A DNA stretch of 64,000 nucleotides from a virus. The notes below the pieces were generated by a model that was not told the origin of the DNA, ran no database searches, and saw only the letters and a list, made by a program, of their open reading frames with translations. Shown here piece after piece: positions 3,355 to 21,799 of this stretch (positions within the stretch are counted from its first letter, which is position 1; each line of letters begins with the position of its first letter). Made by a program: the position numbers and the translations under genes. Location of the stretch: positions 1-64,000 of IMG/VR virus record IMGVR_UViG_3300035698_024877; one strand, 5' to 3'.

Positions 3355-4404
3355 ATGGTGAAACGTGGTTATGATCGAGAAGCTGCTAAAAGGGAAATGG
3401 AGCAGGAAGTTAAGAACAAAGAATCAGGAGGTAAAATATTCTATGTGAATAAGGATGTTCTTGAAGATTGTGGTATTGATACCTATGATATACAACCGAA
3501 AAATTATATTAGATTTGTCCCACAAGAAGGCACAGGGAAGTTTTGGTATAAGATCCCATTTCATTGGGTTAGTGGTGTGGGATATTATTTGTGTCCAAAG
3601 CCACATAGGAATATTGAATGGAAAGGGATTGGTACTGGTGAGTGTCCTTTATGTGAGGAACATGAGGAACTTAGAAAGAAAAGGAATGAAGAAGAGGATT
3701 ATGATAATGAAAAACTTAAGAAGTATATGTCTTCACTTAGATATACTATTAGGGTTCTTTTCTTTGGTAGAAATGTTGATGATAAGCAAAGTATAAAAGA
3801 GGGTACGAAGTTGTTTATTCTACCTAAATCTGTTCATGATGGGATGGTAGATATTAGTAGTGATGACCGTACAGGAAAACCTATCCTTTTTGCTGACCCA
3901 GATGAGGGGTATACTTTCTTCTTTAAGAAAACGGGTGAAGGATTAAAGACTGAATATGTGGGTTTTAAATCTGTAGATGAGTATGCAACAATACCAGATG
4001 AGTGGATAGAAGATATTCCAGCTTTCGAAGAAATCTTATTACTTAGAAAACCCGAAGAAATTAAGGCTATATTAGAAGGGAATGGGATTATAACTATTGA
4101 GGATGAAGAAGAACCACCTCGTAGAGGTAGGGAACGATATGAAGAAGATGAAGAAGAACCACCTCGTAGAGGTAGGGAACGATATGAAGAAGAAGATGAT
4201 ATTGATGATGAAAAAATAATAAAGCAAAAAGAGAAAGAAGAAGAAGATGATGATGATGATATTGATGATGAAAAAATAATAAAGCAAAAAGAGAAAGAAG
4301 AAGAAGATACGGATGATAGAGAAACCCCTGTTCGCAGTAGAGAGAGGAAAGTAGATGATATTAGGAAAAAGCTTGCGGATAAGAAAAATTCTGGAGGAAG
4401 ATAG
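3355..4404 (+). CDS. ssDNA-binding protein, T4 gp32-like, with repetitive acidic tail
   Basis: YIRFVP...FHW...YLCP...GECPLCE zinc site, DPDEG, KTGEGLKTEY, very acidic C-terminus; upstream of UvsY-like and RecA genes. Confidence 0.75.
   Translation: MVKRGYDREAAKREMEQEVKNKESGGKIFYVNKDVLEDCGIDTYDIQPKNYIRFVPQEGTGKFWYKIPFHWVSGVGYYLCPKPHRNIEWKGIGTGECPLCEEHEELRKKRNEEEDYDNEKLKKYMSSLRYTIRVLFFGRNVDDKQSIKEGTKLFILPKSVHDGMVDISSDDRTGKPILFADPDEGYTFFFKKTGEGLKTEYVGFKSVDEYATIPDEWIEDIPAFEEILLLRKPEEIKAILEGNGIITIEDEEEPPRRGRERYEEDEEEPPRRGRERYEEEDDIDDEKIIKQKEKEEEDDDDDIDDEKIIKQKEKEEEDTDDRETPVRSRERKVDDIRKKLADKKNSGGR
4102..4308 (+). repeat. In-frame tandem duplications in the SSB tail
   Basis: DEEEPPRRGRERYEE twice (45-nt period), then DDIDDEKIIKQKEKEEED twice (60-nt period). 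Confidence 0.9.
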
Positions 4405-4406
4405 TA

Positions 4407-4904
4407 ATGAACTTTAAAGATCTCAAATATTTTAAAGGTGAGTTAGACATTGATATTGATTTGTTGCATAAGTGTTGTGCCAATCAAGCAATGCTATACC
4501 AGGAAATTGGGGAGATTGTTGCTACTCTTAGATTTAAGTTTAAATCTGCAAAGTTGAATTTTGAAGGGAAACAAGCAACTCTTGATCTTAATATTAGATT
4601 TAAACCGGAAGATTATAATATTACAAAAATAACAGAAAACACAATAAAATCTGTTATTGATACTGATGCCGAGATAAAAGGAGAAAAAACACACCTTTTG
4701 GTTCTTGAAAAAGAGCTTGAACTCTGGACTAATCTTCTCACCGCTTATGACCAGAGAAGGTCTATGTTGAAGGCAGAGGTTGCATTGTATCAAGCTAATT
4801 ATTGGGGTGATGTTTCTGCTAATGAGGATAAAAAGTTGAGTAGGAAGCACAACGAAAAAGTTATTGAAGAAGAAATGGGAGCAAAAAAACATGGAAAGAA
4901 GTAA
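4407..4904 (+). CDS. UvsY-like recombination mediator
   Basis: Helical 165 aa protein with KITENTIKSVI and AYDQRRSML; between SSB and RecA. Confidence 0.6.
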   Translation: MNFKDLKYFKGELDIDIDLLHKCCANQAMLYQEIGEIVATLRFKFKSAKLNFEGKQATLDLNIRFKPEDYNITKITENTIKSVIDTDAEIKGEKTHLLVLEKELELWTNLLTAYDQRRSMLKAEVALYQANYWGDVSANEDKKLSRKHNEKVIEEEMGAKKHGKK

Positions 4905-4992
4905 TGCTATAAATAACATTAGTAGGAAGGACTTTACTATTTCGAGGATGTGCCAAGAATATCAAGATTCTACATTTGGTGGGGATTAGATT

Positions 4993-6048
4993 ATGGCAAA
5001 AGCAAAGAAGAATGAGAAGGTAGATTTAATTGATATGCAGAGGATATCTGTTGATAAGGAACCAGTTAAGTATTGGTTAGATACGGGCTGTACTTTGCTT
5101 AATATTGCTATTTCTGGGAGAATTGATGGGGGTTTTCCAGCAGGAAAAATTTCTCATATAGTTGGGTTAGAATCTTCTGGAAAATCTGTTTTTGCTCAAG
5201 CTGTTATTGCTTCAGCACAACAGCAAGGCGGGATTGGGATGTTTGTTGATAGTGAAGGCACCCTTGACTTTATTAGAGCAGAAGAGCTTTTTAAAGTAGA
5301 AACAGACCAAGAAAAAGGGAACTTCATCTATGTTGCTCCAGAGGTTTTAACTGTAGAATCTATGTATGACAGCTATATTGATGCTATGATTAATAGGGAT
5401 AGATCTGTTTTTAAGGGTCCAAGTGTTGTGTCAGTTGATAGTTATACAGGGATTCCATCTAAAGTAGAAACAGAAACTAATCTAGATGAAGGGACTTATG
5501 GTACAAGTAGAGCAAAACAATCAGGAGCAGGAATGAGAAAAATTTTAGCTCCTCTTCATCATTCAGATTTGTCTCTTGTATTTGTTGATCAGTATAGAAT
5601 GAATGTCGGGGGGTATGGAGCAACTTATACTGTTAGTGGTGGAAAAGCTTTAGATTTTTATGCTTCTATTCAGGTTGAATTAAAAAAGAAATCCACTATT
5701 AAAAACAAACATGATAGAGCTATTGGTGCTGTATTTGGTTTTAAACTTAAGAAGAACAAAGTTGGTATTCCTTACACAGAAGGCAATTTCTATCTTTACT
5801 TCAATTATGGTATTGATAATACAGAAACTAATATTCAATTTCTTCTTGATAATCAAGTTGGAGAGGCACCCTTTGTTAAAAAAGCAGGAACTTGGATTTA
5901 TGTTGAGGAAGAAAAAGCCCAAGGTGTGGATAAAGTTTGTAGTATAGTAGAAGAAAAAGGATTACAAGAGCGAGTAGAACAAGAAGTTTTAAAGGTTTGG
6001 GGGACTATTCATGAAGATGTTAGACACAATAGAATTTCTATAGTTTAA
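4993..6048 (+). CDS. recA: RecA/UvsX recombinase
   Basis: TGCTLLNIAISG..GGFPAG, GLESSGKS, VDSEG, VDS, GGKALDFYAS, KKNKV. Confidence 0.95.
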   Translation: MAKAKKNEKVDLIDMQRISVDKEPVKYWLDTGCTLLNIAISGRIDGGFPAGKISHIVGLESSGKSVFAQAVIASAQQQGGIGMFVDSEGTLDFIRAEELFKVETDQEKGNFIYVAPEVLTVESMYDSYIDAMINRDRSVFKGPSVVSVDSYTGIPSKVETETNLDEGTYGTSRAKQSGAGMRKILAPLHHSDLSLVFVDQYRMNVGGYGATYTVSGGKALDFYASIQVELKKKSTIKNKHDRAIGAVFGFKLKKNKVGIPYTEGNFYLYFNYGIDNTETNIQFLLDNQVGEAPFVKKAGTWIYVEEEKAQGVDKVCSIVEEKGLQERVEQEVLKVWGTIHEDVRHNRISIV

Positions 6049-19296: not shown

Positions 19297-19862
19297 ATAA
19301 TTTTGAAAAGCAAAAGCAGGAATTTATTAATAAAGTAAAAGAAGAAGACGAAATAAGTTATTTTGATAACTGTGCCCATTTATTTGAACCAGGAAAAGTT
19401 TGGACTACAGATACTGAGGGTAATAATATACTACAAACAAAAGCAGAGCATGAAAGTACAAGAATGGACAGCCCTTCTCCTGGAGAGAAAATAAAAATAT
19501 TGCTGGAATTAAAAGATCGCTGGTTGTTACCAACACGAGCAGAGGTTTTTGGAAGTAGGTGTTCTGTATGCAAATATTTTAGAGATGAGTATGATTGGCT
19601 TGGGTTAAACCCATTAATTCATAGGTGTAAATGTAACATGTGTATGAACGAAATTTTACATCTTCTTGGACCTATTCACTATTCCTATAATGAGCCTTGT
19701 AACAGAGGGGCATGTAATGCATTAGTTTTTAATGGGATGTCTTGTGGAACTGTTCGTAAAAAACGATTTTTTGTTACTAGTGTTTTTGAGCCATTTAGAG
19801 AAGGTTTGCTTAAAAGAATTGATGATGTTATTAAATTTGATATAATTAATAAGGGAGATTAA
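19293..19862 (+). CDS. Cys-rich hypothetical protein within the glycosylation cluster
   Basis: CSVC, CKCNMC, PCNRGAC, SCG; overlaps the GT stop codon. Confidence 0.55.
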   Translation: MNNFEKQKQEFINKVKEEDEISYFDNCAHLFEPGKVWTTDTEGNNILQTKAEHESTRMDSPSPGEKIKILLELKDRWLLPTRAEVFGSRCSVCKYFRDEYDWLGLNPLIHRCKCNMCMNEILHLLGPIHYSYNEPCNRGACNALVFNGMSCGTVRKKRFFVTSVFEPFREGLLKRIDDVIKFDIINKGD

Positions 19863-19902
19863 AAATGAAACAGAAAATGAAAATTTTATTCTATAGATGG
19901 CA

Positions 19903-19917
19903 TTTTAAAATATAATA
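19903..19917 (+). promoter_or_regulatory. Phage promoter motif upstream of thyX
   Basis: TTTATTCTATAGATGGCATTTTAAAATATAATAAAGTA, near-identical to the extended copies at ~42707 and ~47719. Confidence 0.8.
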
Positions 19918-19959
19918 AAGTATGAAGAATTTATTAAGCAATATTTAGATGAGGAAAAA

Positions 19960-21420
19960 ATGAAACTAATTAGACCATATTTTGAAATTCAAACTGATTT
20001 TGATGGTGTAGATGTTTTGCGAACCATTGAAAAGTATGGCAGAGTTTGCTATAAGACAGAAGAAAAAGTAACAGATACATCATATATTCCTTTTATTAAA
20101 AACATTATGAAACGGGGGCATTTATCAGTTATAGAGCATTCTTTGGTTACAGTTAGGTTTATAATTGATAGAGGTGTATCCCATGAACTGGTTAGGCATC
20201 GTTTAGCATCTCTATCCCAGGAAAGCACCCGCTATGTAGGATATTCTGATAGAGTCTATAAAAATAATAAAATGACAGAAGATGAAGTATGTGAATTATA
20301 TGAATTAGGAAACTCAATGAAGAGGGTATCAGAAATTTCTGATGAAAAATATACTGAATGGGATATATACAAGATTCTTAATAAAAATAGTATAAAAAGA
20401 AGAAATCTAGGAAACACTGGCGTCATTTCTGAAAATTTCTTTGATATAATAGACACTCCAGAAAAAGCGTACTTATTGGGGTTTATTCAAGCAGACGGAA
20501 ATTTACGTAAAGATTCATGTCAGATAACAATAACACAAAAGGATGGTTGGTTTATAGAAAGAATGTTAAGAGATTTTATAAAACCTAATTTATCGTCATG
20601 TAATGATGGAAATTGTAAATCATATTCTTTCTCAAACAAAAAATTATATAGCAATTTGTTAAAAGTTGGAATTGTACCAAACAAGACATATAGTATGACA
20701 GATTTTAATGCAACCGCATTATGGAAAAGTGTTTCCAGTGATCTTAAGTGGGATTTTTTAAGAGGTTTACTTGATGGAGATGGCAGTTTAAGGTTTTTTA
20801 AACAGAATAATAAAGGGAAAACAGATTCTTGTAATATTAATTGGACTGGAAACAAATTTTTGTTAGAGCATATATCTTTATATTTAAAAGAAAAATTTAT
20901 GTATGAACCAACTGTACGTAAAGTACATGGTTCTAAAATTTTATATAGAATAATAATCTCTTCTCCAAAAGTTGGAGAAGAGGTATGTAAAAAAATGTAC
21001 TCAAATTTTGTTTTTCCTTATGGGCACCCTGTAAAAACAAGCAGAGCATTTGAAAGAATAAATTTTGATTATAATATAGCACAATGGGGATGTGAAAAAT
21101 TTCAAGCAATAATACCAATTTGGTGCAATAAATTAACTCCAGAATTTTGGATATGGGCAGAAGCTATGGACAAATCAGAAGATGCATATTCCGATTTAAT
21201 AGGTTTAGGTTGGGCACCTGAACAAGCAAGGAGCGTATTACCTAACTCACTTAAAACAGAAGTAATTATGTCAGCTAATTTAAGAGAGTGGTTACACATA
21301 TTTAAAGTGCGGACAGATAAAGCCGCACACCCACAGATGAGAGAAATTATGATTCCACTTTGCGAAGAATTTAAAAGAAGAATTCCTATAATTTTTGATA
21401 ACATAGTTTTGGAGAAGTAA
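19960..21420 (+). CDS. thyX: Flavin-dependent thymidylate synthase ThyX with an in-frame LAGLIDADG insertion
   Basis: GRVCY, GHLSVIEH, RGVSHELVRHR..S.SQESTRY, EQARSVLP, NLREW, AAHPQMRE. Confidence 0.93.
   Translation: MKLIRPYFEIQTDFDGVDVLRTIEKYGRVCYKTEEKVTDTSYIPFIKNIMKRGHLSVIEHSLVTVRFIIDRGVSHELVRHRLASLSQESTRYVGYSDRVYKNNKMTEDEVCELYELGNSMKRVSEISDEKYTEWDIYKILNKNSIKRRNLGNTGVISENFFDIIDTPEKAYLLGFIQADGNLRKDSCQITITQKDGWFIERMLRDFIKPNLSSCNDGNCKSYSFSNKKLYSNLLKVGIVPNKTYSMTDFNATALWKSVSSDLKWDFLRGLLDGDGSLRFFKQNNKGKTDSCNINWTGNKFLLEHISLYLKEKFMYEPTVRKVHGSKILYRIIISSPKVGEEVCKKMYSNFVFPYGHPVKTSRAFERINFDYNIAQWGCEKFQAIIPIWCNKLTPEFWIWAEAMDKSEDAYSDLIGLGWAPEQARSVLPNSLKTEVIMSANLREWLHIFKVRTDKAAHPQMREIMIPLCEEFKRRIPIIFDNIVLEK
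20248..21075 (+). mobile_element. HTH plus double-motif LAGLIDADG homing endonuclease inserted in thyX (boundaries approximate)
   Basis: NFFDIIDTPEKAYLLGFIQADG and DFLRGLLDGDGS; no intein Cys1 or His-Asn splice junctions visible. Confidence 0.85.
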
Positions 21421-21799
21421 GGATGGTAGTTTTTAATATGAATCCAAGCGTAGCTTTAAAAAGCTCGGCGTTGATTAAACAACTGCATTTGAAGTGTGCA
21501 GAATTAGATTGGAAAGAGTCTATAGAAAAGGAAAATTCTTTTTCGTTTAGCATAGCAGATTATACTATTCAAATTAACAGGCATATCCCATCCCAACATT
21601 CTTCAGAATCAATTTATTACACAATAGAGATTTATGATTGGAATGCTACTATTATTGAGCAATTAAATGTTAGAGATTTCCAAGGTGAAATGCCAAATAA
21701 TTGGGCGATGTTTAAGAGAATTTTTATTGTAGCAAGAAGAATAGCTATGGATGTAAATAAAGCTTATGATGTAATTTTATCTGATTTAGAGGAATGCGA

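Follow-up and report, generated by a model that had tools for sequence, protein, structure and literature searches.

The virus record IMGVR_UViG_3300035698_024877 of the IMG/VR database, of which positions 1 to 64,000 form the window analysed here, contains a thyX gene that is split by an endonuclease of the LAGLIDADG type with an N-terminal helix-turn-helix (HTH) module, inserted in the reading frame of thyX. The full record measures 95,337 bp, with a GC (guanine plus cytosine) content of about 32% and a completeness of about 64%. The fused gene is a single open frame of 486 codons plus stop, and its sequence indicates that it probably encodes a homing endonuclease which is not spliced out, but is kept as a domain of a predicted working ThyX thymidylate synthase. 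A non-splicing endonuclease accommodated in a loop after the ThyX active-site motif had been proposed in the initial annotation of this stretch, and every computational test supports that proposal.

A Pfam scan of the 486-residue protein, whose uninterrupted frame is as first annotated, reveals the Thy1 domain (PF02511) in two separate stretches with LAGLIDADG_3 (PF14528) in between. Thy1 is matched with a score of 150 bits (cut-off 24.8, E 7e-44), its C-terminal stretch covering residues 397–476, and LAGLIDADG_3 with 33–35 bits (cut-off 22.5). The whole fusion also exceeds the cut-off of the NCBIfam thyX equivalog TIGR02170 (117.3 versus 87.9 bits). Alignment with about 120 insert-free ThyX proteins of 203–240 residues places the insert at residues 97–375, flanked by RY-VGYS and WG-CEK-FQAIIP and starting four residues past the RHR...S-x-RY motif. 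In the insert-free proteins a short loop, CNYSKDKFGNE, occupies this interval just after the motif. Both Pfam and the alignment agree with the annotated break of ThyX after SQESTRYVGYS, and the ThyX sequence resumes at WGCEKFQAIIP. The expectation that removal of the insert leaves a complete ThyX holds as well, but the sizes are corrected from about 270 to 279 residues for the insert and from about 215 to 207 residues for the ThyX remainder. The GC content of the insert is 27.7%, against 34–35% in the ThyX flanks. Frames 2 and 3 of the insert contain 23 and 39 stops, respectively, and only the thyX frame is open. The features of the fused gene are the following:

19960..21420, plus strand: thyX::HTH-LAGLIDADG fusion open reading frame (ORF), identified by the ORF itself, Pfam and TIGR02170
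19960..20247, plus strand: ThyX N-terminal part, residues 1–96, a Thy1 stretch that ends with the motif RHRLASLSQESTRY plus VGYS
20194-20235, plus strand: ThyX motif RHRLASLSQESTRY, residues 79–92, matching RHRxxSxxxxSxR(Y)
20248..21084, plus strand: in-frame insert, residues 97–375, from the alignment with insert-free ThyX and from composition
20272..20388, plus strand: Met105 (ATG at 20272-20274) and three-helix HTH module, residues 105–143, from the structural model and BLASTP to the protein P0378
20458..21045, plus strand: single-chain LAGLIDADG core, residues 167–362, from LAGLIDADG_3 and the sequence and fold match to Protein Data Bank (PDB) entry 2dch
20470-20499, plus strand: LAGLIDADG motif 1, YLLGFIQADG, residues 171–180, with acidic residue D179
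20755-20784, plus strand: LAGLIDADG motif 2, FLRGLLDGDG, residues 266–275, with acidic residue D274
21013-21045, plus strand: family motif FPYGHPVKTSR, residues 352–362
21085..21417, plus strand: ThyX C-terminal part, residues 376–486, from the Thy1 stretch and regional identities

In an AlphaFold2 model of the fusion protein, built on 88 homologues (predicted local distance difference test score, pLDDT, 93.6; predicted template modelling score, pTM, 0.87), the insert consists of a three-helix bundle at residues 107–142 (helices 107–115, 120–126 and 133–142), a linker, and two repeats of α-β-β-α-β-β topology. The HTH that had been read from the sequence alone is represented by these three helices, and the two LAGLIDADG motifs recognized with it are likewise present. 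D179-G180 and D274-G275 terminate helices 167–179 and 260–274, which are the first helices of the two repeats. The only PDB match by sequence is I-Tsp061I (PDB 2dch, E 0.0027). A Foldseek search with the insert retrieves I-Tsp061I (E 1.7e-8, template modelling (TM) score 0.64) and I-DmoI (TM 0.61–0.70). These archaeal enzymes (PDB entries 2dch and 5a0w), the best matches of the core, resemble the insert in having two motifs with terminal acidic residues and in being monomeric pseudo-dimers. Unlike the insert, they are free proteins, encoded in rRNA introns, and have no HTH at the N-terminus.

When the insert alone is searched against 1.84 billion representative proteins, 10,683 relatives are retrieved at E ≤ 0.001. 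The best approximately 25 have the lengths of ThyX fusions, with an internal match, and the lower-ranked relatives listed are mostly proteins of 250–330 residues that are matched across nearly their whole length. The free-standing relatives that were scanned combine HTH modules of the resolvase or homeodomain type (HTH_7/23/38-type) with LAGLIDADG_3. One of them, P0378 (268 residues), aligns by BLASTP with residues 9–266 of the 279-residue insert at 30% identity, with its Met1 on insert residue 9, which is Met105 of the fusion, and reaches the GHPxKTxR motif near both C-termini. Approximately 8 codons at the 5′ side and 13 codons at the 3′ side of the insert lie outside this alignment. Because P0378 aligns from Met1 on Met105 through the shared GHPxKTxR motif, the insert is judged to be an entire free-standing homing endonuclease gene that was fused in frame together with its start codon. 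Free-standing phage HTH-LAGLIDADG genes, with relatives in the thousands, show the same domain order and length, but are separate genes between or beside host genes, whereas the ThyX insert lacks a separate stop codon and is translated as part of ThyX. No paralogue of the insert is found in the 95,337-bp record.

A methionine at the position of Met105 occurs in 10 of 121 aligned insert-bearing proteins, including the nearest homologues of the fused protein; to judge from the alignment, Met105 may be left over from the original start codon, or may serve as an internal start for a product that comprises the nuclease and the C-terminal part of ThyX. Promoter-like sites in and around the fused gene are not commoner than in shuffled sequences, which leaves a separate nuclease promoter unsupported. 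A terminator-like hairpin with an 11-pair stem and a subsequent T-rich tail is found on the antisense strand of the insert (20958-20982, minus strand) and is the sole such site in 19700-21600, where 0.3 would be expected. Two relatives of the insert, P0397 (790 residues) and P0398 (931 residues), are unusually long for homing endonucleases, and P0398 shows many HTH-family matches along its length (HTH_7, CENP-B_N, HTH_58, HTH_28) together with LAGLIDADG domains.

The junctions of the insert carry no signature of protein splicing. In the fused protein the first and last residues of the insert are D97 and Q375, followed by W376 at position +1. As first annotated, a Cys or Ser at insert position 1, a TxxH motif and an Asn followed by Cys, Ser or Thr at the junction are all absent. 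Across the 121 homologues the junction positions are variable, with K, D, N, E, S or T at the first position, D, K, S, E, T or N at the last and W, P, I, F, A or Y at +1. Since these positions vary freely, conserved splicing at these junctions seems possible by no known class of intein chemistry. An in-frame insertion beside an active-site motif is nevertheless typical of inteins, and a non-canonical intein, excised by a splicing chemistry that is not recognized, could be envisaged. True inteins do occur in phage ThyX, as in a second IMG/VR record (IMGVR_UViG_3300025010_000110; 4001–5689 of the fragment L047), where an intein of approximately 350 residues with a LAGLIDADG domain starts with Cys, ends with Gly-Asn followed by Cys, and is located between DRG and CSHE, approximately 20 residues upstream of the insertion site described here. 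A further fragment, L048, agrees with L047 in the listed match length and identity. The Hint-domain search suggested in the initial annotation was negative as expected, with no intein family from Pfam or NCBIfam matched in the fusion protein. Pfam, however, can miss Hint domains and also failed to detect that of the L047 ThyX, which was used as a control; NCBIfam weakly flags the control intein, with intein-related matches, but not the fusion protein. The structural evidence points in the same direction. The model contains the three-helix bundle and the LAGLIDADG fold only, without the β-rich module of a Hint fold, and the intein entries among the Foldseek matches align to the endonuclease part alone. 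The alignment of insert residues 9–266 with a free-standing endonuclease leaves no room for a Hint domain of approximately 130 residues. With this evidence and the variable junctions, an intein is considered highly improbable.

Removal at the RNA level is considered equally improbable. Group I introns are classically found in the thymidylate synthase genes of phages, the td gene of phage T4 being an example, and an intron ORF sometimes continues the upstream exon; a group I or group II intron with a read-through ORF could be envisaged here. A permissive Rfam scan of 19700-21700 (E ≤ 10) reveals no intron family, however, and its best match is a small RNA model that scores 22.8 bits, the gathering score being 55. 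Coding sequence fills the whole insert and leaves no non-coding room for a ribozyme; the view that neither an intron signature nor space for a group I core is present is upheld. Only the 8 or so 5′ codons and 13 or so 3′ codons fall outside the endonuclease alignment. None of 20,000 shuffles of the insert remains open, and the frame is open across both junctions in at least 120 homologues.

These homologues, counted as clusters at 90% identity, show the same in-frame architecture in proteins of about 470–620 residues, with 39–60% identity over the full length. Scans of IMG/VR and GTDB place few carriers (L075, L076, L155 and L156) among the matches listed, which are not to be read as frequencies. 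Within the family, pairwise identity averages 46% in the insert and 51% in ThyX. In an alignment of 121 insert-bearing homologues the acidic residues D179 and D274 of the nuclease are each kept in 119 proteins, and the lysines K169, K242 and K359 in all of them. The ThyX residues R79, R81, S89, R91 and Y92 are conserved in 119–121 proteins, and the C-terminal arginines R424 and R451 in 121 and 120, respectively. Because both sets of key residues are kept in 119–121 of the 121 sequences, a dead ThyX or a decaying nuclease is unlikely on the sequence evidence.

Several members of this family show additional peculiarities. Some insert-bearing ThyX proteins have further large insertions in the N-terminal half or extra N-terminal regions, examples being P0087-P0113 (about 613 residues), L076 5001-6767 (588 residues) and L243 1066-3705 (880 residues); in the 613-residue group approximately 125 extra residues lie between the first helices and the DRG motif. 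Insert-bearing thyX genes are also found on very large contigs, such as L237 (Ga0208957_1000009, 221,625 bp) and L075/L245 (339,898 bp), and some of the large carrier contigs are labelled by their sources as Patescibacteria metagenome-assembled genomes. A crAss001-like thyX interrupted by HicA was considered and rejected, since HicA is the upstream gene and the ThyX of crAss001, encoded by one gene of 299 codons, contains no endonuclease. In Bacteroides phage PhiCrAssBcn18 (OQ221553.1; L315 601-1603), thyX is annotated as two overlapping coding sequences, 601-975 and 962-1603, which is probably the result of a frameshift or sequencing error.

The predicted structure suggests that the two halves of ThyX form an intact fold. 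Both halves together match the ThyX structures of M. tuberculosis, C. glutamicum and T. maritima in a Foldseek search (TM 0.68–0.74). In addition, a two-copy model of the fusion reaches a score of 0.55, compared with 0.01 for the best control; of 30 proteins whose solved structures are pairs of one chain, 20 attain this mark, against 1 of 23 whose solved structures are single chains. The two-copy runs show at least 92% contact agreement and a partner pLDDT of at least 83, and the predicted dimer interface involves ThyX residues 70–91 and 386–458 only. The modelled pairing may reflect a memory of the solved ThyX tetramers. It is conceivable that the insertion has destroyed ThyX and that the frame survives as the carrier of a selfish nuclease. 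The insertion lies only four residues past the substrate-binding motif, and although neither ThyA nor a second ThyX is found in the 95,337-bp record, this record is only about 64% complete and another thymidylate synthase could be encoded elsewhere. The invariance or near-invariance of the ThyX catalytic residues in the insert-bearing proteins, a constraint on the ThyX part that is similar to that of insert-free enzymes, the TIGR02170 score and the intact ThyX fold and ThyX-type dimer interface in the models all argue against a dead gene, which is regarded as very unlikely.

Comparison of occupied and empty alleles suggests that the insert moves together with its immediate flanks. The insert-free proteins in these comparisons were picked by similarity to two query proteins, and the occupied/empty pairs are examples, not frequencies. 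The insert-bearing protein P0055 and the empty P0244 (207 residues) are 96% identical in the N-terminal part and 91% in the distal C-terminal part, but only 30% in the 37 residues after the insert. Conversely, P0055 and P0105, which is insert-bearing on a different backbone, share 67% identity in the N-terminal part, 96% in the insert, 92% in the following 37 residues and 64% in the distal C-terminal part. Further occupied/empty pairs are P0051/P0242 (97/100%), P0030/P0245 (97/98%) and P0021/P0222 (85/86%); they span three insert lineages with a mutual identity of 41–74%. An identity gradient centred on the insert is observed in at least three groups. Trees show the same partition of the ThyX sequence. 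The 99 insert-proximal ThyX columns give a tree with 2 changes of insert state, whereas the 111 insert-distal columns give 22 changes, compared with a mean of 43 for shuffled labels, and reject a single clade of carriers (log-likelihood difference 159, approximately unbiased (AU) test p-AU 0.008). Since the proximal columns require 2 changes and the distal columns require 22 and reject the single clade, the flanks adjoining the insert, but not the remainder of ThyX, appear to be carried along with it. To the extent that protein alignments can tell, this pattern is the classic footprint of homing with co-conversion, with the insert still mobile in relatives. The insert entered thyX immediately 3′ of the best-conserved DNA stretch of the gene, as expected of a homing site. 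An inference of carrier polyphyly from a tree of the whole of ThyX was dropped; the insert state changes 7 times in the FastTree result and twice in that of IQ-TREE, for which redundant sequences were removed, and the AU test is non-rejecting.

Several observations weigh against a mobile, non-spliced endonuclease in this gene. The mosaics and co-conversion tracts are mapped at the protein level only, and all ThyX columns taken together do not reject a single carrier clade, the constrained tree being in fact the better one (p-AU 0.82). Part of the mosaicism would be expected if the insert had entered thyX once, long ago, and carriers had later recombined with one another. The insert shows almost the same degree of conservation as ThyX, which would likewise be expected of a domain that has become useful to the phage. 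The hidden Markov model negatives for an intein are weak evidence by themselves, given that Pfam missed the Hint domain of the control. Finally, mobility is seen in relatives, and for the present copy there is a mosaic hint alone: the distal ThyX parts, including residues 421–486, are nearest to insert-free ThyX, and residues 376–420 are nearest to insert-bearing ThyX. The history of this copy is only hinted at because the protein has no close relative. Its best homologue is 60% identical, a search with the upstream ORF finds no relatives of the phage, and no empty allele close to this gene was found.

Some of these observations would be accounted for by a domesticated domain, fixed without homing in this lineage and kept for the benefit of the phage. 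It might, for instance, regulate or localise ThyX through DNA or RNA binding, or act on competitors as a nuclease. The small difference in conservation between insert and ThyX, the single clade that all ThyX columns leave unrejected and the lack of an empty allele near the present gene are in line with such a role, as is the pTM of the model, which suggests a defined domain arrangement. The occupied and empty pairs with donor-type tracts in three insert lineages, at 92–100% identity, and the rejection of one clade by the distal columns are at odds with it. Furthermore, the catalytic acidic residues are retained in 119 of the 121 proteins, unlike those of WhiA, a domesticated LAGLIDADG protein in which they have been lost. 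The FPYGHPxKTxR motif is not an adaptation to ThyX, because free-standing relatives carry it as well. On balance a domesticated domain appears unlikely, though less so than an intein, an intron or a dead gene, and a non-spliced homing endonuclease within a functional ThyX remains the reading that we favour.

In the mechanism that we propose, a complete free-standing HTH-LAGLIDADG gene would have invaded a functional phage thyX and lost its own stop codon, such that it came to be translated as an internal domain of ThyX. Neither RNA splicing nor protein splicing would remove the insert, which would be retained in the mature protein. The two ThyX halves would fold together, with the nuclease projecting from the loop past the RHR...S-x-RY motif. 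In a mixed infection the nuclease would cut thyX alleles in which the site, formed by the codons for STRY-CNYSKDKFG, is uninterrupted, and repair templated by the occupied allele would transfer the insert together with a short flanking tract. The occupied allele itself would be immune because its site is split by 837 bp and the flanking codons differ. The bifunctionality of the protein, with ThyX activity as well as DNA cleavage, and its cleavage target are inferred.

In the textbook view, a conserved gene can harbour a homing endonuclease only when an intron or intein ensures its removal. In fungal mitochondria, LAGLIDADG genes (I-OnuI, I-LtrI) are joined in frame to rps3 with neither an intron nor an intein of their own; these fusions are near the 3′ end of the gene and regenerate the displaced end. 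The ThyX nuclease, in contrast, is internal, between the halves of one fold. Related insertions have been described in DNA methylases of actinobacteriophages, including a 'lone LAGLIDADG' without detectable splicing element that is apparently vertically inherited, and the ShiLan domain, in which an HNH nuclease is encoded out of frame and whose disjunct distribution is homing-like (Arsenault, Gosselin and Gogarten, Genes 2025, PMC11855218). As in these methylases, a homing-type cassette lies in a phage enzyme gene whose frame stays open, with no detectable intein or intron. A homing-like distribution is shared with the ShiLan domain, but the nuclease of the latter is of the HNH type and out of frame, whereas that of ThyX is a LAGLIDADG enzyme in the host frame, the other frames containing the many stops mentioned above. 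Judged from the sequences, the ThyX case differs from the methylase precedents in that the nuclease is in frame and beside the catalytic motif, belongs to a large, diverged family and comes with explicit evidence of movement, in the form of occupied and empty alleles with co-conversion tracts. ThyX inteins, known from the Ter ThyX of Trichodesmium and from mycobacteriophages (PMC5050341), are likewise mobile, endonuclease-bearing elements in the thyX frame near active-site motifs; the insert has none of the features by which the L047 intein is recognized, i.e., the Cys start, the Gly-Asn end followed by Cys, the length of approximately 350 residues and the site between DRG and CSHE. No paper linking ThyX with a LAGLIDADG insert other than inteins was found in the literature.

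It is somewhat probable, in our opinion, that the family exemplifies a third general way, besides introns and inteins, for a homing endonuclease to occupy a conserved gene, namely as a folded domain that is permanently in frame, accommodated by a loop next to the active site, and still homes efficiently. The family suggests that splicing is dispensable where the host fold tolerates a whole extra domain, even at four residues from a catalytic motif. The enzyme is small, occupied and empty alleles are clearly distinguishable and natural variants are numerous, which makes the family a tractable case for studies of the invasion of enzyme cores by selfish nucleases and of the remodelling of the host gene by co-conversion. 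It could, moreover, show how enzyme-nuclease fusions originate. It also provides natural single-chain LAGLIDADG scaffolds with an added HTH, all predicted to be aimed at one conserved site. For annotation it contains a warning, in that proteins of approximately 480 residues that are named only "thymidylate synthase", where they are named at all, hide a nuclease domain. If the proposed mechanism is correct, the ThyX tetramer of the phage carries four active meganuclease domains, and the ThyX family is a natural system for the spreading of a splicing-free mobile domain among phages, possibly modelling the stage before an endonuclease joins a Hint domain.

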